From the IMG/VR virus record IMGVR_UViG_2698536401_000005: 7,154 nucleotides of DNA, one strand, 5' to 3'. Source of the DNA: a virus (taxonomy: Duplodnaviria; Heunggongvirae; Uroviricota; Caudoviricetes). A model generated the notes under the pieces. The model ran no database searches, was not told the origin of the DNA, and worked only from the letters and a program-made list of their open reading frames with translations. Every line of letters begins with the position of its first letter. Positions within the stretch are counted from its first letter, which is position 1. The translations under genes were made by a program, and so were the position numbers. Positions 884-6,985 of the stretch are shown here, piece by piece.

Positions 884-1155
884 GTATTCGTATCGAAATT
901 GGCGAACGTTATGTTGTTACCAGTGACAGCTTTCAGTTTATTCTCCACGAGAAAAAGAGAGCGGAAAGCGGTAAAAACGCCGGTCAGGAATGGCTGGCGG
1001 TGGTTGGTTATTACCCGAAATTAAGCCAGCTCGTTTCCGGCCTGATGCATCACGATATTCTGACCGGAAGCGCAAAATCTTTTGCCGATTTAAACGCGCA
1101 GGTTGAGCAACTCAGCAGGCGTTGTTCAGAGGCTTTTGGCTCATATGGACGTTAA
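880..1155 (+). CDS. Small early-operon hypothetical protein (91 aa) immediately upstream of gene A
   Basis: ATG at 880 overlaps the upstream stop (ATGA); stop TAA at 1153-1155 overlaps the start region of the long replication ORF. No motif recognised. Confidence 0.5.
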   Translation: MSIRIEIGERYVVTSDSFQFILHEKKRAESGKNAGQEWLAVVGYYPKLSQLVSGLMHHDILTGSAKSFADLNAQVEQLSRRCSEAFGSYGR

Positions 1156-3235
1156 AGCCTCCGGGCGTTTTGTCCCTCCGTCAGCATTTGCCGCAGGCAC
1201 CGGTAAGGCGTTTACCGGTGCTTATGCATGGAACGCGCCACGCGAGGCTGTCGGGCGCGAAAGACCTCTTACACGTGACGAGATGCGTCAGGTGCAAGGT
1301 GTTTTATCCACGATTAATCGCCTGCCTTATTTTTTGCGCTCGCTGTTTACTTCACGCTATGACTACATCCGGCGCAATAAAAGCCCGGTGCACGGGTTTT
1401 ATTTCCTCACATCCACTTTTCAGCGTCGTTTATGGCCGCGCATTGAGCGCGTGAATCAGCGCCATGAAATGAACACCGACGCGTCGTTGCTGTTTCTGGC
1501 AGAGCGCGACCAGTATGCGCGCCTGCCGGGGATGAATGACAAGGAGCTGAAAAAGTTTGCCGCCCGTATCTCATCACAGCTTTTCATGATGTATGAGGAA
1601 CTCTGCGATGCCTGGGTGGATGCGCATGGCGANNNNNNNNNNNNNNNNNNNNNNNNNNNNNNNNNNNNNNNNNNNNNNNNNNNNNNNNNNNNNNNNNNNN
1701 NNNNNNNNNNNNNNNNNNNNNNNNNNNNNNNNNNNNNNNNNNNNNNNNNNNNNNNNTTTCTTAAATCGTGTGACCTTGAAAACAGGGAAACCGGCGAACG
1801 CATCGACCTTATCAGTAAGGTGATGGGCAGTATTTCTAATCCTGAAATTCGCCGGATGGAGCTGATGAACACCATTGCCGGTATTGAGCGTTACGCCGCC
1901 GCAGAGGGTGATGTGGGGATGTTTATCACGCTGACCGCGCCGTCAAAGTATCACCCGACTCGTCAGGTCAGAAAAGGCGAAAGTAAAACCGTTCAGCTTA
2001 ATCACGGCTGGAACGATGAGGCATTTAATCCAAAGGATGCGCAGCGTTATCTCTGCCGCATCTGGAGCCTGATGCGCACGGCATTCAAGGATAATGATTT
2101 ACAGGTCTACGGTTTGCGTGTCGTCGAGCCACACCACGACGGAACGCCGCACTGGCATATGATGCTTTTTTGTAATCCACGCCAGCGTAACCAGATTATC
2201 GAAATCATGCGTCGCTATGCGCTCAAAGAGGATGGTGACGAAAGAGGAGCCGCGCGAAACCGTTTTCAGGCAAAACACCTTAACCGGGGCGGTGCTGCGG
2301 GATATATCGCAAAATACATCTCAAAAAATATCGACGGCTATGCACTGGATGGTCAGCTCGATAACGATACCGGCAGGCCGCTGAAAGACACTGCAGCGGC
2401 TGTTACCGCATGGGCGTCAACGTGGCGCATCCCGCAATTTAAAACGGTTGGTCTGCCGACAATGGGGGCTTACCGTGAACTACGCAAATTGCCTCGCGGC
2501 GTCAGCATTGCTGATGAGTTTGACGAGCGCGTCGAGGCTGCACGCGCCGCTGCAGACAGTGGTGATTTTGCGTTGTATATCAGCGCGCAGGGCGGGGCAA
2601 ATGTCCCGCGCGATTGTCAGACTGTCAGGGTCGCCCGTAGCCCGTCGGATGACGTTAACGAGTACGAGGAAGAAGTCGAGAGAGTGGTCGGCATTTACGC
2701 GCCGCATCTCGGCGCGCGTCATATTCATATCACCAGAACGACGGACTGGCGCATTGTGCCGAAAGTGCCGGTCGTTGAGCCTTTGACTTTAAAAAGCGGC
2801 ATCGCCGCGCCTCGGAGTCCTGTCAATAACTGTGGAAAGCTCACCGGCGGTAATACTTCGTTACCGGCTCCCACGCCTTCTGAACACGCCGCAGCCGTGC
2901 TTAATCTGGCTGATGACGGTGTTATCGAATGGAATGACCCGGATGTCGTGAGGGCGCTCAGGGGCGCATTAAAACACGGGCTGAGAACGCCAAATCGTCA
3001 ACAAAGAAACGGAAGCCCGTTAAAACCGCATGAAATTGCACCATCGGCCAGACTGAGCCGGTCTGAACGATTGCAAATCACCCGTATCCGCGTTGACCTT
3101 GCTCAGAACGGTATCAGGCCGCAGCGATGGGAGCTTGAGGCGCTGGCGCGTGGCGCGACCGTAAATTATGACGGGAAAAAATTCACGTATCCGGTCGCTG
3201 ATGAGTGGCCGGGATTCTGGCATCAATTTGAGTAA
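1145..3235 (+). CDS. A: Rolling-circle replication initiation endonuclease, P2 gpA family (HUH superfamily); interrupted by an N-run
   Basis: Long ORF with an H-W-H (HUH) metal-binding motif at nt 2150-2158 (GTPHWHMMLF) and a paired-tyrosine motif YIAKYISK (Y at 2303-2305 and 2315-2317), the Y-x3-Y arrangement of phiX174/P2 A-type initiators. First ATG is at 1145; the ORF track's start at 1103 is a TTG. Stop TAA at 3233-3235. The frame is preserved across the N-run. Confidence 0.88.
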   Translation: MDVKASGRFVPPSAFAAGTGKAFTGAYAWNAPREAVGRERPLTRDEMRQVQGVLSTINRLPYFLRSLFTSRYDYIRRNKSPVHGFYFLTSTFQRRLWPRIERVNQRHEMNTDASLLFLAERDQYARLPGMNDKELKKFAARISSQLFMMYEELCDAWVDAHGXXXXXXXXXXXXXXXXXXXXXXXXXXXXXXXXXXXXXXXXXXFLKSCDLENRETGERIDLISKVMGSISNPEIRRMELMNTIAGIERYAAAEGDVGMFITLTAPSKYHPTRQVRKGESKTVQLNHGWNDEAFNPKDAQRYLCRIWSLMRTAFKDNDLQVYGLRVVEPHHDGTPHWHMMLFCNPRQRNQIIEIMRRYALKEDGDERGAARNRFQAKHLNRGGAAGYIAKYISKNIDGYALDGQLDNDTGRPLKDTAAAVTAWASTWRIPQFKTVGLPTMGAYRELRKLPRGVSIADEFDERVEAARAAADSGDFALYISAQGGANVPRDCQTVRVARSPSDDVNEYEEEVERVVGIYAPHLGARHIHITRTTDWRIVPKVPVVEPLTLKSGIAAPRSPVNNCGKLTGGNTSLPAPTPSEHAAAVLNLADDGVIEWNDPDVVRALRGALKHGLRTPNRQQRNGSPLKPHEIAPSARLSRSERLQITRIRVDLAQNGIRPQRWELEALARGATVNYDGKKFTYPVADEWPGFWHQFE
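1633..1756. other. Run of 124 N (masked or unsequenced bases) inside gene A
   Basis: Literal n characters in the sequence. The A reading frame stays open and in register on both sides. Confidence 0.99.
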
Positions 3236-3325
3236 TGATCTCATCTATACAGTATTAAGCAGTTTTGACTGTAATTGATTGTTTTTTATATGGTTGCATG
3301 CATTAAATCTACGTCAATATCATTA

Positions 3326-3334
3326 TGTTATAAT
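3326..3334 (+). promoter_or_regulatory. Candidate extended -10 promoter element (TGtTATAAT) for the cargo genes
   Basis: TG at 3326-3327 and a perfect TATAAT at 3329-3334, in a very AT-rich intergenic stretch (3236-3362) about 30 nt upstream of the DUF2158-like gene's ATG. A TTGACT hexamer also lies at 3265-3270, possibly part of a second promoter. Sequence pattern only. Confidence 0.4.
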
Positions 3335-3362
3335 GCATTACTTAAAAATGTTGGAGACAAAA

Positions 3363-3554
3363 ATGTTAAAGCCTGCAGATGTTGTTTGTTTGAAAAGCGG
3401 TGGATTTAAAATGACTGTATCTGACTCTACTGAGACTCATGCTAAATGTATTTGGCATGATAAAGAAGGAGTTTTGCACGAGGAGTCATTCTCCATTGAT
3501 TTACTGGAAATAGCAGAGAGTAAAAGTGGTATGCTGTGTCGTCCACGTAAGTGA
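3363..3554 (+). CDS. Small protein (63 aa) resembling the DUF2158/YodC-like family
   Basis: GGAG at 3352-3355 sits 7 nt upstream of ATG 3363. The N-terminal pattern 'KPADVVCLKSGGFKMTV' resembles the conserved G-D-x-V-x-LKSGGP-x-MTV signature I recall for DUF2158 proteins. The ORF track's start at 3279 lacks an RBS and is probably too far upstream. Confidence 0.55.
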   Translation: MLKPADVVCLKSGGFKMTVSDSTETHAKCIWHDKEGVLHEESFSIDLLEIAESKSGMLCRPRK

Positions 3555-3581
3555 ATCACAATAAAATTCACGGGGGAAAGT

Positions 3582-4262
3582 ATGAAACAATACAGCGAAT
3601 TAGAAAACAATGTTAAGAGATTCATTGTTGAGCATGAAAAAGGGATTTCTATTGATGATATTCATCATAAGTTCCGGATGAAGGATGGTCAGAATCGCAA
3701 GATGGCAGATTATCTTATTGATAATAAAAAGATAATTTTGGAGATGAAAAGTCTTTTTTCTGACAGGGTCAAGAATGTCAATGATAAATTGAATGAGTTG
3801 GTTAAAACTGATAGTTGGCTTGCAAAAAACTGGCATGGTGCTATTCATTTAGAAGAGTTGATAAAAAGACACCCAGACTCAAAGCGATTTAGAAATGATA
3901 TAATGAACTTTGCTTATGAAAATATTAAAACAAAGGTAGTTAAAGAAGCTAATAAGCAAATAAATGCAACAAAGGATGTTTTGGGTTTAAATGACTCGAT
4001 TGGCGGATTGATTTTGTTAAATGATAATGTCTTTTCACATGAGTTTAATTATTTGTCAGATGAAATATTATATTTGCTAGGCACAAAGAGATATTCGAGT
4101 GTTGAGTTTGTGGTTTATATTGCAAAATTGATTGATAAACAGGTTGATGTTTGTGTGCTACTTGACAGTCAATCTAAAAATAAAAATTATATTGAATGGT
4201 ATATGAATAATGTTTTTTTGTTGAACTGGGCGTCTTTTAATAAATATGCAATAAAGATGTAG
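3582..4262 (+). CDS. Unrecognised 226-aa protein, AT-rich cargo gene (candidate defence-associated)
   Basis: ATG at 3582 with GGGGGAAAG just upstream; lies 27 nt after the DUF2158-like gene, so probably co-transcribed. Very low GC and Lys/Asn/Ile-rich composition unlike the phage backbone. No catalytic motif recognised. Confidence 0.6.
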   Translation: MKQYSELENNVKRFIVEHEKGISIDDIHHKFRMKDGQNRKMADYLIDNKKIILEMKSLFSDRVKNVNDKLNELVKTDSWLAKNWHGAIHLEELIKRHPDSKRFRNDIMNFAYENIKTKVVKEANKQINATKDVLGLNDSIGGLILLNDNVFSHEFNYLSDEILYLLGTKRYSSVEFVVYIAKLIDKQVDVCVLLDSQSKNKNYIEWYMNNVFLLNWASFNKYAIKM

Positions 4263-4511
4263 TGGTGTGGATGGATATGAAATGAGTCAACCAAGATGCA
4301 CCTTGGTCAGTAATCTCATGTGAGATACCACATATAACACCAAAAGTGTCAGGTTGATGGCCATTGTTCACCGTTTACAGCAGATTATGGTCAACGAAAA
4401 TCTGACGCCCGATGAGCTAGTCGGGTGTGCCGAAATAGTCAGGGATAATTACGAACAGCTTAACTATATCGGTCAGTCCAGCCTTGCGCCGCCACCACGC
4501 AGACGATAGAG

Positions 4512-4554
4512 AACCCCGCCAGCAATGAAACATGTTTTCAGTGCTGGCGGGGTT
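4512..4554. terminator. Near-perfect 43-bp palindromic hairpin between convergent genes (candidate bidirectional terminator)
   Basis: Arms aaccccgccagca (4512-4524) and tgctggcggggtt (4542-4554) are exact reverse complements (13 bp). The loop contains a second palindrome aaacatgttt (4528-4537). It lies ~30 nt past the stop of the minus-strand 313-aa gene and directly after the small plus-strand ORF ending at 4509. No clean U-tract on the + side; a pyrimidine-rich tract follows on the - side. Confidence 0.5.
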
Positions 4555-4582
4555 GAACAACGAACGAAGTGAGGCGTTAGCA

Positions 4583-5524
4583 TTAAGTTAATTTTAATGA
4601 ATGGTACTCTCGTGAGTTGACCGAAGATTTGAGATAACCGCAATCATTAACCGACAGTATTGCCGCTAATAGGCGACAAACGAGTTTCTGCATTTGCAGT
4701 AATATATCGTTACCATATTGATTGTTGTTAACACTGGAAAAACCAAGTGGTTGGCCAAAAAAAATAGCCTCATGAAAATTATCATTGCGGATGCCAGAAA
4801 TGTTTTTTTTGCCTGATACCCATGTGGGGATTGATAACCCATAAATTCTGCACATCCACTTTAATCGCTTGGAATGATTTGGCTGGGTTTTATCAGGAGC
4901 CTTGTCATGCTCAGCCCACGATAAAGCAAAGCAACCATCAAGTGCCATGTAAAGGTACTGGAATTTTTCAAAAGGAAGGTATTGTGGGTTTTGAGATAAG
5001 AATAGCGCATGCACCACTGCCGCAATTCTTTTGGGGGAGTGCGCATCCTTTTGTTTGTTAGTTATATAATTAAGAGCCAGTTCTATGACTTCTTTTTCAG
5101 AGCATCCAACGAGAATAAAATCGGTTAACTTAGTGGGCTTGATAGTGGTTGCATCAAGAAAACCAGCGTCAGTGGTTGTCAATCTTATACCCTTGAAAAA
5201 AGAGAGGCACCACACAACAAAGTTGAGAGTTTCTAACGAGGATGTGTTTTTTAATTTTAGTGTGTGCGTTTTGGGCATGCCGAATACTCGGTAACTATAA
5301 GGCATTGTGCATGAGTCACCATTAAGGTTATATACCTTTCGATTCCCAGGGTATATCCAACCATTAACAACGTTTTTATCATTGTTAATACGTTCCACTT
5401 TCTCAATAAGACCGGGTAAAGTACGCAAAGAAAATTGTTCAGTCTCAATGTTAACTTCTACTGGATAGTATCCAAACTCCGAAATAATCTCATTTGGTTG
5501 CTGTTCGTCAACTTCGCCTTGCAT
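4583..5524 (-). CDS. Unrecognised 313-aa protein with a C-terminal R-N-x3-H (HEPN-like) motif; candidate abortive-infection/defence effector
   Basis: ATG at 5524-5522 (minus strand) preceded by GGAGAAAG; stop at 4585-4583. AT-rich like the other cargo genes. Residues R246-N-D-N-F-H251 (nt 4772-4789) fit the HEPN RNase signature R-[N/Q/H]-x3-H within a predicted helical C-terminal half. The family call rests on this single motif plus context. Confidence 0.6.
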   Translation of the reverse strand: MQGEVDEQQPNEIISEFGYYPVEVNIETEQFSLRTLPGLIEKVERINNDKNVVNGWIYPGNRKVYNLNGDSCTMPYSYRVFGMPKTHTLKLKNTSSLETLNFVVWCLSFFKGIRLTTTDAGFLDATTIKPTKLTDFILVGCSEKEVIELALNYITNKQKDAHSPKRIAAVVHALFLSQNPQYLPFEKFQYLYMALDGCFALSWAEHDKAPDKTQPNHSKRLKWMCRIYGLSIPTWVSGKKNISGIRNDNFHEAIFFGQPLGFSSVNNNQYGNDILLQMQKLVCRLLAAILSVNDCGYLKSSVNSREYHSLKLT

Positions 5525-5762
5525 AACTTTCTCCGTTCAAAAACAGGCACGATAATTCTCGTAAGCCTATCATGTTCGCAAAGTATCCATACCTGTGGAT
5601 TTTGTAAATTTAAGTTGGTTTGTCATTAAATAAGCCGTTGCATGCAACAAGTGAATGTTTTTGCATGCGTCGGGGATGTCCGTTCAGGCTGCGTGCGGTC
5701 AGGACTGGTGCGGATCCATAGTATCTATGCAACTGCATTAAAACCGCCCCATGAAGCGGGCG

Positions 5763-5781
5763 GGCGAGGCGGGGAAAGCAC
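5763..5781 (+). other. cos site: 19-nt cohesive-end sequence of P2-type phages (GGCGAGGCGGGGAAAGCAC)
   Basis: Exact 19/19 match to the P2 cohesive-end sequence as I recall it. It sits in a GC-rich non-coding stretch between the cargo island and the end of portal gene Q, which is where cos lies in P2. Confidence 0.7.
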
Positions 5782-5950: not shown

Positions 5951-6985
5951 TCAGCCGTTGTCAGTGTCCAGTGAGTAGTTTTTAAAGCGGATGACCTCCT
6001 GACCGAGCCAGCCGTTTATTTCCCGAATCCTGTCCTGTAACGGGATAAGCTCATTGCGGACAAAGACCTTTGCCACTTTCTCAATATCACCCAGCGACCC
6101 GACGTTCTCCGGCTTGCCGCCCATCAACTGAAAGGGGATGCGGTGCGCGTCCAGCAGGTCAGCGGCGCTGGCTTTTTTGATATTAAAAAAATCGTCCTTC
6201 GTCGCCACTTCACTGAGCGGGATAATTTTAATGCCGTCGGCTTTCCCCTGTGGTGCATAGAGAAACAGATTTTTAAAGTTGTTGCGGCCTTTCGACTTCA
6301 CCATGTTTTCGCGGAGCATTTCGATATCGTTGCGATCCTGCACGGCATCAGTGACGTACATGATGTATCCGGCATGTGCGCCGTTTTCGTAATACTTGCG
6401 GCGGAACAGCGTGGCCGACTCATTCAGCCAGGCAGAGTTAAGGGCGCTGAGATATTCCGGCAGGCCGTACAGCTCCTGATTAATATCCGGCTCCAGCAGG
6501 TGAAACACGGAGCCGGGCGCGAAGGCTGTCGGCTCGTTGAAGGACGGCACCCACCAGTAAATATCCTCTTCCACACCACGGCGGGTATATTTTTCCGGTG
6601 AGGTTTCCAGTCTGATGACCTTACCGGTGGTGCTGTAACGCTTTTCCAGAAATGCATTACCAAATACCAGAAAATCCAGCACAAAGCGGCTGAAATCCTG
6701 CTGGGAAAGCCATGGATGCGGGATAAATGTCGAGGCCAGAATATTACGTTTGACGTAAATCGGTGAGCTGTGATGCACGGCAGCACGCAGGCTTTTTGCC
6801 AGACCGGTAAAGCTGACCGGCGGCTCATACCATCTGCCGTTACTGATGCATTCGACGTAATCCAGAATGTCACGGCGGTCGAGCACCGGCACCGGCTCAC
6901 CAAAGGTGAATGCCTCCATTTTCGGGGCGCTGGCAGTCATTTTTTTTGCCGCAGGTTGCGGTGTTTTCCCTTTTTTCTTGCTCAT
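5951..6985 (-). CDS. Q: Phage portal protein, P2 gpQ family (344 aa)
   Basis: 344-aa ORF, the same length as P2 gpQ, positioned next to cos and immediately downstream of the terminase gene on the same strand. Its start ATG (6985-6983) overlaps the upstream stop as TGATG. Identification is by recollection of the family and by synteny. Confidence 0.85.
   Translation of the reverse strand: MSKKKGKTPQPAAKKMTASAPKMEAFTFGEPVPVLDRRDILDYVECISNGRWYEPPVSFTGLAKSLRAAVHHSSPIYVKRNILASTFIPHPWLSQQDFSRFVLDFLVFGNAFLEKRYSTTGKVIRLETSPEKYTRRGVEEDIYWWVPSFNEPTAFAPGSVFHLLEPDINQELYGLPEYLSALNSAWLNESATLFRRKYYENGAHAGYIMYVTDAVQDRNDIEMLRENMVKSKGRNNFKNLFLYAPQGKADGIKIIPLSEVATKDDFFNIKKASAADLLDAHRIPFQLMGGKPENVGSLGDIEKVAKVFVRNELIPLQDRIREINGWLGQEVIRFKNYSLDTDNG

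Follow-up and report, generated by a model that had tools for sequence, protein, structure and literature searches.

The question raised by this locus is what a P2-like phage carries between its replication gene A and cos, and whether the genes found there form one system or several. The window analysed here is a stretch of 7,154 nucleotides from a Caudoviricetes genome (IMG/VR record IMGVR_UViG_2698536401_000005), in which the cargo interval (positions 3236-5640) is flanked by P2 gpA, with its stop at 3235, and by cos. The left border of the hotspot, the gene for the gpA replication endonuclease (1103..3235, plus strand), is N-masked at 1633-1756; its RefSeq twin is annotated as 'replication endonuclease', and the Citrobacter gpA homolog matches Pfam Phage_GPA. 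The right border is an exact match to GGCGAGGCGGGGAAAGCAC (5763..5781), which we take to be the P2 cos core, and a cos-like core is found in 35 of 43 related viral loci. Beyond it lies the backbone gene for the portal protein gpQ (5951..6985, minus strand), assigned by Pfam Phage_portal (E 6e-14) and by RefSeq annotation. From the end of gpA, the cos core and the portal gene it follows that 3236-5640 is the A-to-cos slot, with gene A on one side and cos plus portal gene Q on the other as in P2-like phage, and an earlier note on this DNA had placed it in the same way.

The interval has a GC content of 0.369, whereas the value is 0.514 for the left flank, 0.577 for the cos region and 0.526 for the portal gene. 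The low GC described before is therefore real, at 0.37 versus 0.51-0.58 in the flanks, and the third codon positions show the same difference (GC3 of 0.30-0.37 in the cargo genes and 0.61-0.64 in gpA and the portal gene). Three cargo ORFs are present, namely DUF2158 and ORF226 on the plus strand and ORF313 on the minus strand, and the two larger ones, ORF226 (3582-4262) and ORF313 (4583-5524), are convergent, as had been noticed. All three are under purifying selection (dN/dS 0.08-0.30), which indicates real genes. The earlier count of three genes holds for the cargo, but a fourth small ORF (4354-4509) lies in a backbone segment within the interval. The slot is that of P2 tin/old, which provide prophage-encoded exclusion of competing phages, and P2 old lies next to cos and reads leftward, in the same orientation as ORF313. 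OLD, with about 586 aa, combines an ABC-ATPase with a TOPRIM nuclease, whereas ORF226 and ORF313 have neither domain; Pfam matches to the ATPase and TOPRIM domains of the OLD family are absent from all three cargo proteins (63, 226 and 313 aa), in line with the earlier statement that no gene here resembles old.

The P2-like hotspot holds 1,650 gene arrangements among 18,150 loci, including many validated defence systems (Rousset 2022), which bears out its description as a known variable site. Gene content also differs among the related prophages compared here: ORF313 occurs in 93 of 5,426 complete E. coli genomes and DUF2158 together with ORF226 in 27, both rarer than the backbone segment (397 genomes), and the same slots of other prophages hold DinI-like, ImmA/IrrE, ASCH/DUF3850, methylase and other genes instead. 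In the first slot, next to gpA, the genes found elsewhere in P2-like phages are ASCH/DUF3850, gp91/gp92, DinI-like or ImmA/IrrE genes. The comparison with related P2-like prophages that the earlier note had proposed thus confirms a variable slot with alternating cargo, and its view of these genes as swapped cargo is upheld. The DNA itself has been recorded before. The interval is 99.5% identical over 2,405 bp to the TO-region of P2-EC67 (GenBank AM157369: ORF73, ORF226, ORF313), and Table S5B of Rousset 2022 lists ORF313 as cassette #11 (a single hypothetical protein, 218 loci) and DUF2158 with ORF226 as cassette #63 ('DUF2158', 67 loci); these entries are the same proteins or close alleles, with the two cassettes catalogued separately. 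The term 'undescribed' in the earlier note is therefore too strong as regards the sequences, but it stands as regards their assignment, since these records give the same DNA or proteins and the same position without a function or a nuclease or HEPN domain for ORF226 and ORF313. Peptide strings of the two proteins are present only in the catalogue (Table S5) and absent from the tested systems (Table S2) of Rousset 2022, which rules out identity with the validated three-hypothetical-protein system of that study; by the same comparison, neither protein is among its validated P2 systems (DUF4238, three-hypothetical-protein, DprA-PRTase, TIR+TM), and the DefensePredictor supplements contain no accession or peptide matching either cassette.

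The interval was described before as one island, but it is interrupted by a 259-bp segment (4322..4580) with a GC content of 0.494, which shows an identity of about 86-89% to Wphi, P2-like isolates and Yersinia phages and occurs in the 397 E. coli genomes mentioned above. As this segment is conserved P2-family backbone, the 'island' is in fact two sub-loci, and this split is new relative to the earlier sources, as are the assignment to nuclease and HEPN families and the broader contexts of these families given below. Sub-locus 1 (3236..4321) is AT-rich cargo (GC 0.32) between gpA and the segment. Within the segment lies a conserved ORF of 51 aa with a TTG start (4354..4509, plus strand), a backbone gene belonging to phrog_11386 (PHROG E 7.6e-26) with backbone-like GC3 (0.56); its RefSeq name, 'meiotically up-regulated 80 protein', is spurious. 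Behind it is a GC-rich hairpin (4512..4554; 19-nt arms, 5-nt loop, 95% complementary), with a dG of -31.4 and -30.9 kcal/mol on the two strands, which lies between the convergent transcription units and is a candidate bidirectional terminator, although a clear U-tract is absent. The earlier note had credited the interval with promoter and terminator signals of its own. For the terminators, this hairpin is the sole convincing terminator-like element, the scan of the interval being otherwise not above chance; a repeat search returned nothing besides it, and the Rfam scan gave no match. The promoter signals fared less well, since sigma-70-like hexamers are not enriched (13 observed versus 8.5 +/- 2.8 expected in shuffled sequence). 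The candidate upstream of DUF2158, TTGACT-18-TATGGT (3265..3294, plus strand; 9/12 consensus matches), is not above chance frequency in AT-rich DNA and so is weak evidence. On the other side, the leader or promoter region from cos to the ORF313 start (5525..5762, minus strand) is conserved, being near-identical even beside a 78% ORF313 allele, and it contains a promoter-like match of the scan, ATGACA-16-CAAAAT (5626-5599, minus strand).

The cargo of sub-locus 1 is a two-gene operon. Its first gene (3363..3554, plus strand; RefSeq WP_001547483) encodes a small protein of 63 aa belonging to DUF2158 (Pfam PF09926, E 1.2e-7, 31.8 bits against a cut-off of 22.3; phrog_3261), with a GGAG Shine-Dalgarno sequence 8 nt upstream and a dN/dS of 0.20 versus the Citrobacter copy; the previous 91-aa reading of this gene had taken a start that is too early. 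ORF226 (3582..4262, plus strand) follows 27 nt downstream and encodes a predicted nuclease of the PD-(D/E)xK type, that is, of the restriction-endonuclease fold. Among 31 sequences, down to about 20% identity, its only invariant residues are D43, E54, K56, Q126 and N147. The putative active-site codons D43...E54-x-K56 lie at 3708..3749 (plus strand; DYLIDNKKIILEMK), and in the structural model the three residues sit on strands 44-46 and 51-57. ORF226 thus carries the D...(D/E)xK motif by which the PD-(D/E)xK nuclease superfamily is recognised, and the model predicts the corresponding restriction-endonuclease-like alpha/beta fold. No curated profile in Pfam, NCBIfam or PADLOC matches it, the sole profile trace being a sub-threshold DpnII-MboI match (E 0.0028) in relative P0147. 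Other relatives are fused to Mrr_cat, adjoin a CI repressor and DUF4238, a validated defence gene, or lie within an integron-like cassette array, and in one longer relative there is translational coupling to a cyclase with a DAC domain. ORF226 has its fold and its D...ExK triad in common with NucC of CBASS, Can2/Card1 and type II/IV restriction enzymes, and the coupling of the longer relative to a cyclase-like DAC protein resembles the pairing of NucC with CD-NTases. Unlike those effectors, ORF226 has no adjacent cyclase, methyltransferase or recognisable sensor domain, only the 63-aa DUF2158.

ORF313 (4583..5524, minus strand), the stand-alone gene in the tin/old slot, encodes 313 aa with a predicted HEPN-like C-terminal domain. 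In the AF2 model, an orphan beta-rich N-terminal domain (aa 1-137) precedes a HEPN-like helical domain (aa 138-313). The latter contains R246-N-D-N-F-H251-E252 (codons at 4769..4789, minus strand), in which R246, N247, H251 and E252 are invariant among 32 family sequences; this RNxxxHE motif is retained in viral homologs down to 40% identity and agrees with the conserved Rx4-6H motif of the HEPN superfamily. Very divergent P2-like phages carry the gene in this slot too, and across the viral loci its identity is discordant with that of gpA and the portal protein. It also occurs in Aeromonas, in Acinetobacter, where it is a prophage moron, and in P. aeruginosa, where it shares an integrase island with a TIR-NACHT gene. 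Both large proteins show nuclease signatures typical of defence effectors. With PADLOC, Pfam and NCBIfam, the only match among all four ORFs was DUF2158, with no defence or HEPN match, PHROGs gave unknown-function families only, and profile searches against PDB sequences returned nothing for ORF226 or DUF2158. We take the PADLOC library to include a model of ApeA and the Pfam HEPN families to include PF18739 HEPN_Apea; neither PADLOC nor Pfam-A gave a match of ORF313 to ApeA (Gao_Ape).

Solo HEPN proteins encoded by prophages have been proven to act as anticodon nucleases in abortive infection, and three single-protein HEPN systems were compared with ORF313. HepS, a solo HEPN abortive-infection protein of the Gifsy-1 prophage, has homologs of less than 250 aa with R100-H105 and no extra domain, and it belongs to lambdoid phages, where its trigger is the siphovirus tail-tip protein J (Nature 2026, PMC13043305). 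ORF313 comes from P2-like phages and, with its 137-aa beta-rich N-terminal domain and its motif at 246-251, is set apart by this description. ApeA is closer in layout, as it is also encoded by a single gene and has non-HEPN N-terminal regions followed by a C-terminal, diverged HEPN domain with insertions (Gao et al. 2020; bioRxiv 2026.01.26.701840); it is a tRNA anticodon nuclease activated via a pocket outside the catalytic centre (bioRxiv 2026.01.26.701840). However, ApeA is larger (about 580 aa), its N and Mid domains are alpha-helical and it assembles into decamers or dodecamers, whereas ORF313 has a small, beta-rich N-terminal domain. DARNA, a HEPN immunity protein activated by ssDNA bound by phage SSB, has the reverse order, with an N-terminal HEPN domain (1-159) and a C-terminal helical domain in a dodecamer of 456-aa subunits (bioRxiv 2026.02.22.705581). 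On the architectures described for these proteins, identity of ORF313 with ApeA, DARNA or HepS was rejected.

The position, cargo status, modularity and purifying selection of these genes, as well as the modelled fold of ORF226 and the invariant catalytic motifs, are established by the comparisons above. We consider it probable that the cos-proximal hotspot holds two independent cargo cassettes here, one encoding the HEPN RNase ORF313 and the other DUF2158 with the PD-(D/E)xK DNase ORF226, and most likely both are autonomous abortive-infection or exclusion nucleases that block competing phages; nuclease activity, substrates, triggers and an anti-phage phenotype are what we infer for both of them. 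In such a scheme, ORF313 would be transcribed leftward from the conserved cos-proximal leader at the tin/old position as a self-contained HEPN ribonuclease, which in the lysogen would be made constitutively and held inactive. A superinfection cue could be sensed by the orphan N-terminal domain or by the highly conserved 101-137 segment, upon which RNA would be cleaved at a composite R246/H251 site that the HEPN domains form, probably in a dimer or a larger oligomer. The target would most likely be tRNA anticodon loops, by analogy with HepS, ApeA, DARNA and PrrC/RloC, and the cleavage would stop translation and thereby abort the infection. The effector of the two-gene operon would be the PD-(D/E)xK DNase (D43/E54/K56), acting on phage DNA as it invades or replicates or, once activated, on DNA of any kind, with DUF2158 as an accessory or regulatory partner that is dispensable in the wider nuclease family.

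Going further, we propose tentatively, and with somewhat more doubt than confidence, that ORF313 represents a new self-contained family of HEPN Abi nucleases, with the N-terminal domain and the 101-137 segment as an infection sensor of a new kind, long shuffled in the cos-proximal slot of Peduoviridae, and that ORF226 represents a new family of PD-(D/E)xK effectors, which in P2-like phages stand alone or with DUF2158 and elsewhere are wired to DAC cyclases. The wiring of ORF226 to DAC, if true, would point to an undescribed defence pathway with c-di-AMP-like signalling, and ORF226 contributes a compact family of nucleases linked to cyclase-based signalling. Among the E. coli P2-hotspot cargoes in Rousset's catalogue, ORF313 ranks 11th in abundance and is unseen by PADLOC and Pfam; should it prove to be an active solo HEPN nuclease, it would add a new sensor architecture to the small set of single-protein anticodon-nuclease systems (HepS, ApeA, DARNA, PrrC/RloC), and it would help to account for the phage resistance that prophages confer on clinical and livestock E. 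coli. In addition, one vague 'island' is reduced to two short constructs with named catalytic residues.

An unlikely but not negligible alternative is that the cargo does not serve defence, ORF226 being a homing-type endonuclease, or the genes forming a prophage-stabilising addiction or toxin module or acting on the P4 satellite or host RNA metabolism. Like homing endonuclease genes, ORF226 is a small, AT-rich and free-standing nuclease gene amid conserved backbone genes, and the persistence of ORF313 in one slot of very divergent P2-like phages could mean a phage-specific role; furthermore, in about a quarter of the P2 hotspot loci the cargo does not serve defence but consists, for example, of partition systems or cdt toxins, and only 3 of the 8 additional P2 systems cloned by Rousset gave protection (Rousset 2022). 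However, the ORF226 family is spread over unrelated contexts (a plasmid, the integron-like array, a lambdoid-type prophage end and the cyclase operon) and not tied to one homing site. ORF313, for its part, is found outside P2-like phages too and has no antitoxin partner: neither an MNT antitoxin of the HEPN-MNT type nor a conserved neighbour was seen in the window or in the E. coli, Yersinia phage, Pseudomonas, Aeromonas and Acinetobacter contexts. Moreover, among the defence systems newly validated in E. coli, HEPN and PD-(D/E)xK are the two effector folds that occur most often.

We regard it as quite improbable that ORF313 is not a HEPN RNase, its C-terminal domain being a generic helical bundle, with RNxxxHE used for ligand binding or other catalysis and the active centre in residues 101-137. 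That segment is the most conserved of the protein, and the AF2 model is least confident right around the motif (residues 246-263, pLDDT <50). None of the 32 family members matched a Pfam model, HEPN or other, at E <= 1, nor did five isolated C-terminal domains match anything in Pfam at E <= 10; Foldseek found no significant match in the PDB, and the profile search against PDB sequences gave only a weak match, probably by chance, to the N-terminus of NrdB (E 0.016). By name, HEPN membership is supported only in UniProt, where one family member is called 'Apea-like HEPN', and a test of ORF313 was not found in the searchable literature. The invariant R246/H251 pair is nonetheless consistent with the HEPN assignment, which we retain as the more probable.

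The least probable explanation is a single cooperative system of all three genes, as the earlier note had implied, in which one cassette senses and the other acts, or one regulates or immunises against the other. DUF2158 with ORF226 adjoins ORF313 in 27/27 E. coli occurrences, where the ORF313 alleles have nucleotide identities of about 99%, 85% and 83%, and ORF313 is likewise present on each of the 8 IMG/VR contigs that carry ORF226, so some functional link is possible; a naive Fisher test with the 397 genomes that contain the backbone segment yields p = 3.6e-19, a value that ignores shared descent. Conversely, ORF313 occurs without DUF2158 and ORF226, beside unrelated neighbours, in 66 of the 93 E. 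coli genomes that have it and at 35 of the 43 viral loci, the units are convergent with the conserved, hairpin-bearing backbone segment between them, and they are separate systems in Rousset 2022. ORF313 is thus an autonomous cassette. Finally, a Citrobacter P2-like prophage lacks ORF313 and has a different gene, of 250 aa, behind DUF2158 and ORF226, and the nuclease stands alone, without DUF2158, on Pantoea IncFII plasmids and in more distant ORF226 relatives, and the Citrobacter and Pantoea contexts rule out an obligate coupling of the two cassettes.

The window covers the right end of a P2-like (Peduovirus) prophage, where small early genes are followed by the replication endonuclease gene gpA (1103-3235, +), the interval 3236-5640, the core of P2 cos, GGCGAGGCGGGGAAAGCAC (5763-5781), and gpQ, which encodes the portal (5951-6985, -). 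Within gpA, 124 consecutive N (1633-1756) give a stretch of X in the translation and have no bearing on the cargo finding. The earlier note had described the interval as AT-rich cargo between gene A and cos, and base composition bears this out, with a GC content of 0.369 versus 0.514 in the left flank and 0.53–0.58 in the right, and a GC3 of 0.30–0.37 in the cargo genes versus 0.61–0.64 in gpA and the portal gene. The first cargo gene, DUF2158 (3363-3554, +), had been read as 91 aa from a start too far upstream, and both RefSeq and a Shine-Dalgarno sequence favour the ATG at 3363 (63 aa). ORF226 (3582-4262, +) starts 27 nt past it, a spacing by which the two are probably one operon. The third gene, ORF313 (4583-5524, -), runs toward them.

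The notion of a single island does not hold, since a segment of backbone at 4322-4580 divides the interval into two sub-loci. This segment has a backbone-like GC content of 0.494, is about 86–89% identical to its counterparts in Wphi, P2-like isolates and Yersinia P2-like phages, and was found in 397 of 5,426 complete E. coli genomes. It contains a strong hairpin (4512-4554, dG about -31 kcal/mol), which sits between the two convergent transcription units, and a 51-aa ORF (4354-4509, +) of the family phrog_11386, whose function is unknown. The phrog profile and a 68-aa annotation in phage vB_YpM_46 suggest that this ORF is longer in other phages, and its RefSeq name, 'meiotically up-regulated 80 protein', is evidently a spurious transfer. 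In Wphi, one P2-like isolate and vB_YpM_46, a first slot, from gpA to the segment, is occupied by gp91/gp92 or an ASCH/DUF3850 gene, and a second, from the segment to cos, by the main cargo, either a methylase with two genes or ORF313. Therefore, DUF2158 and ORF226 lie in the first slot and ORF313 in the tin/old slot, the P2 accessory position next to cos. The occurrence of different genes in the same slots of related prophages agrees with the variable hotspot proposed before.

ORF313 is present in 93 complete E. coli genomes, where its alleles fall at about 99, 93, 85 and 78% nucleotide identity, and DUF2158 with ORF226 in 27, every copy being at least 98.9% identical. The upstream neighbour of ORF313 is a DinI-like gene (and, toward cos from ORF313, an additional gene of 327 aa), ImmA/IrrE with a 199-aa gene, or ASCH/DUF3850. 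In IMG/VR, homologs of ORF313 (40–100% identity) occur on 43 contigs, 39 of which carry a co-oriented P2-type portal gene about 1.4 kb away, and only eight DUF2158 and ORF226. Moreover, the identities of ORF313 and the backbone are discordant in both directions: some contigs have ORF313 at 88–92% with gpA at 30–47% or absent, and others have ORF313 at 74% with gpA at about 90% and the portal at 99%. This discordance indicates that ORF313 is a cassette that P2-like phages exchange. From cos to the ORF313 start, the leader (5525-5762, with equivalents in comparison loci L003, L020 and L021) is nearly unchanged across alleles 78–100% identical; its conservation even beside the 78% allele puts the right-hand limit of recombination at the ORF313 start codon, and suggests a shared backbone promoter/leader driving whatever cargo occupies the slot.

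ORF313 accompanies DUF2158 and ORF226 in 27 of 27 E. coli genomes and in all eight IMG/VR contigs (L028-L035), and its alleles there span about 83% to 100% identity. This co-occurrence could reflect linkage by descent or functional preference. However, the linkage is broken in a Citrobacter P2-like prophage, where DUF2158 and ORF226 are followed by an unrelated 250-aa gene, and in Pantoea IncFII plasmids, where an ORF226 homolog stands by itself and lacks an upstream DUF2158 ORF. Thus, they are treated as two separate cassettes, as in Rousset et al. (2022), and of the earlier interpretation the hotspot and the cargo status stand while the idea of one system gives way to two independent cassettes. 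The Citrobacter prophage is the sole exception to the pairing among the DUF2158–ORF226 loci.

The cargo DNA is 99.5% identical to GenBank AM157369, 'P2-EC67 ORF226 and ORF313', which presumably stems from Odegrip/Haggard-Ljungquist work on the TO region. The gpA-gpQ hotspot was defined by Rousset et al. (2022), whose Table S5B gives system #11 as one ORF313-like protein with no domain (218 loci) and system #63 as ORF226 with DUF2158 (67 loci); neither was found among the systems cloned there. The genes are thus not undescribed, as had been supposed, since the sequences and the cassette listing were already known, but the fold assignments for ORF226 and ORF313 are absent from these records.

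ORF313 has more than 390 homologs of about 310–325 aa in Enterobacterales, Aeromonas, Pseudomonas, Acinetobacter and Stenotrophomonas, and its alleles show dN/dS of 0.15–0.30. Its AlphaFold2 model (pLDDT 79.8, pTM 0.82) consists of a beta-rich N-terminal domain (about residues 1–137), for which no relatives were detectable, and a helical C-terminal domain. The motif RNxxxHE (R246, N247, H251, E252) is invariant in 32 sequences and retained even by viral homologs with as little as 40% identity, and we consider it quite probable that ORF313 belongs to HEPN. Several observations count against this assignment: the motif loop has low confidence in the model, no Pfam HEPN model matched any family member or any isolated C-terminal domain, Foldseek against the PDB returned no significant match, the N-terminal domain is an orphan, and conservation peaks outside the motif. 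The most conserved block of the family, FVVWCLSFFxGxRLTTTxAGFLDATxIKP (residues 101–140, window about 5105-5224, -), lies at the domain junction outside the HEPN motif and could be a ligand/sensor site or a second functional centre. The family profile also weakly matches the first 44 residues of NrdB (E. coli ribonucleotide reductase R2), 'NDxLxExxFFxxP...', at residues 243–283 or so (window about 4676-4798, -; E values of 0.016 over the full sequence and 0.3 over the domain), probably by chance because the catalytic R and H are unmatched.

Outside P2-like phages, no conserved partner of ORF313 was found across the Acinetobacter, P. aeruginosa and Aeromonas contexts: the homologs are a moron within a P22-like prophage, part of an integrase/resolvase island that also has an HNH gene and encodes a 959-aa SEFIR/TIR-NACHT protein, and part of a two-gene islet, respectively. 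In P. aeruginosa (L009 6729-7969), a 73-aa XRE-family HTH gene, absent at other loci, lies 50 nt upstream of the homolog and might serve in local regulation.

Close homologs of ORF226 form a small family confined to Enterobacterales, and an exhaustive profile search gave 348 relatives. In a 31-sequence alignment reaching down to about 20% identity, D43, E54, K56, Q126 and N147 are the only invariant residues, and in the model (pLDDT 80.6) D43, E54 and K56 lie on adjacent beta-strands following an N-terminal helix, as in a predicted PD-(D/E)xK nuclease. Some relatives are fused to Mrr_cat and SEC-C, and another lies in an integron-like cassette array. At L016 4327-6539, a relative of 40% identity follows a CI/LexA-type repressor gene (HTH_3 and Peptidase_S24) by 33 nt in the same orientation and adjoins, at the end of a prophage, a serine recombinase and a gene for DUF4238, a single-gene defence validated by Rousset et al. 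(2022), with a BamHI restriction-modification system near. Furthermore, in metagenome contig SRR12816581_206457 (L022 3163-5696), a 346-aa family nuclease is translationally coupled to a 497-aa upstream protein with DACND/DACNH/DAC (diadenylate-cyclase-like) domains, its start being the last base of that gene (both 4656), and the pair resembles a signalling conflict system built from a cyclase and a nuclease. DUF2158, recognised by a Pfam match (E 1.2e-7), is paired with ORF226 only in P2-like phages.

Anti-phage defence is the most likely function of the cargo. ORF313 would probably be made in the lysogen from the conserved cos-proximal leader and stay inactive until its N-terminal or 101–137 region detects an infection signal, whereupon RNA cleavage by a composite R246/H251 site would make the infection abortive. 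ORF226 would cut DNA, perhaps as a restriction-like enzyme that depends on modification or structure, or as an abortive-infection nuclease once activated, and DUF2158 would be its putative modulator. We infer these RNase and DNase roles from fold, motif, context and analogy. ApeA (bioRxiv 2026.01.26.701840), DARNA (bioRxiv 2026.02.22.705581) and HepS (PMC13043305) demonstrate that single HEPN proteins, also those that prophages encode with no antitoxin, act as dormant anticodon nucleases until infection cues activate them. ORF313 differs from all three in size and domain order. DefensePredictor validated 13 PD-(D/E)xK and four HEPN systems in E. coli, and no trace of the ORF226 and ORF313 cassette proteins was found in its supplements. 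Both cassettes are well-defined, abundant and testable candidates, which would not surprise specialists. Two more cargo genes of the hotspot, both with no Pfam domain, are further uncharacterised candidates: one of 327 aa in E. coli strain 103, lying between ORF313 and the portal (L020 4918-5901, -), and one of 250 aa that takes the place of ORF313 in Citrobacter (L008 7305-8057, +).
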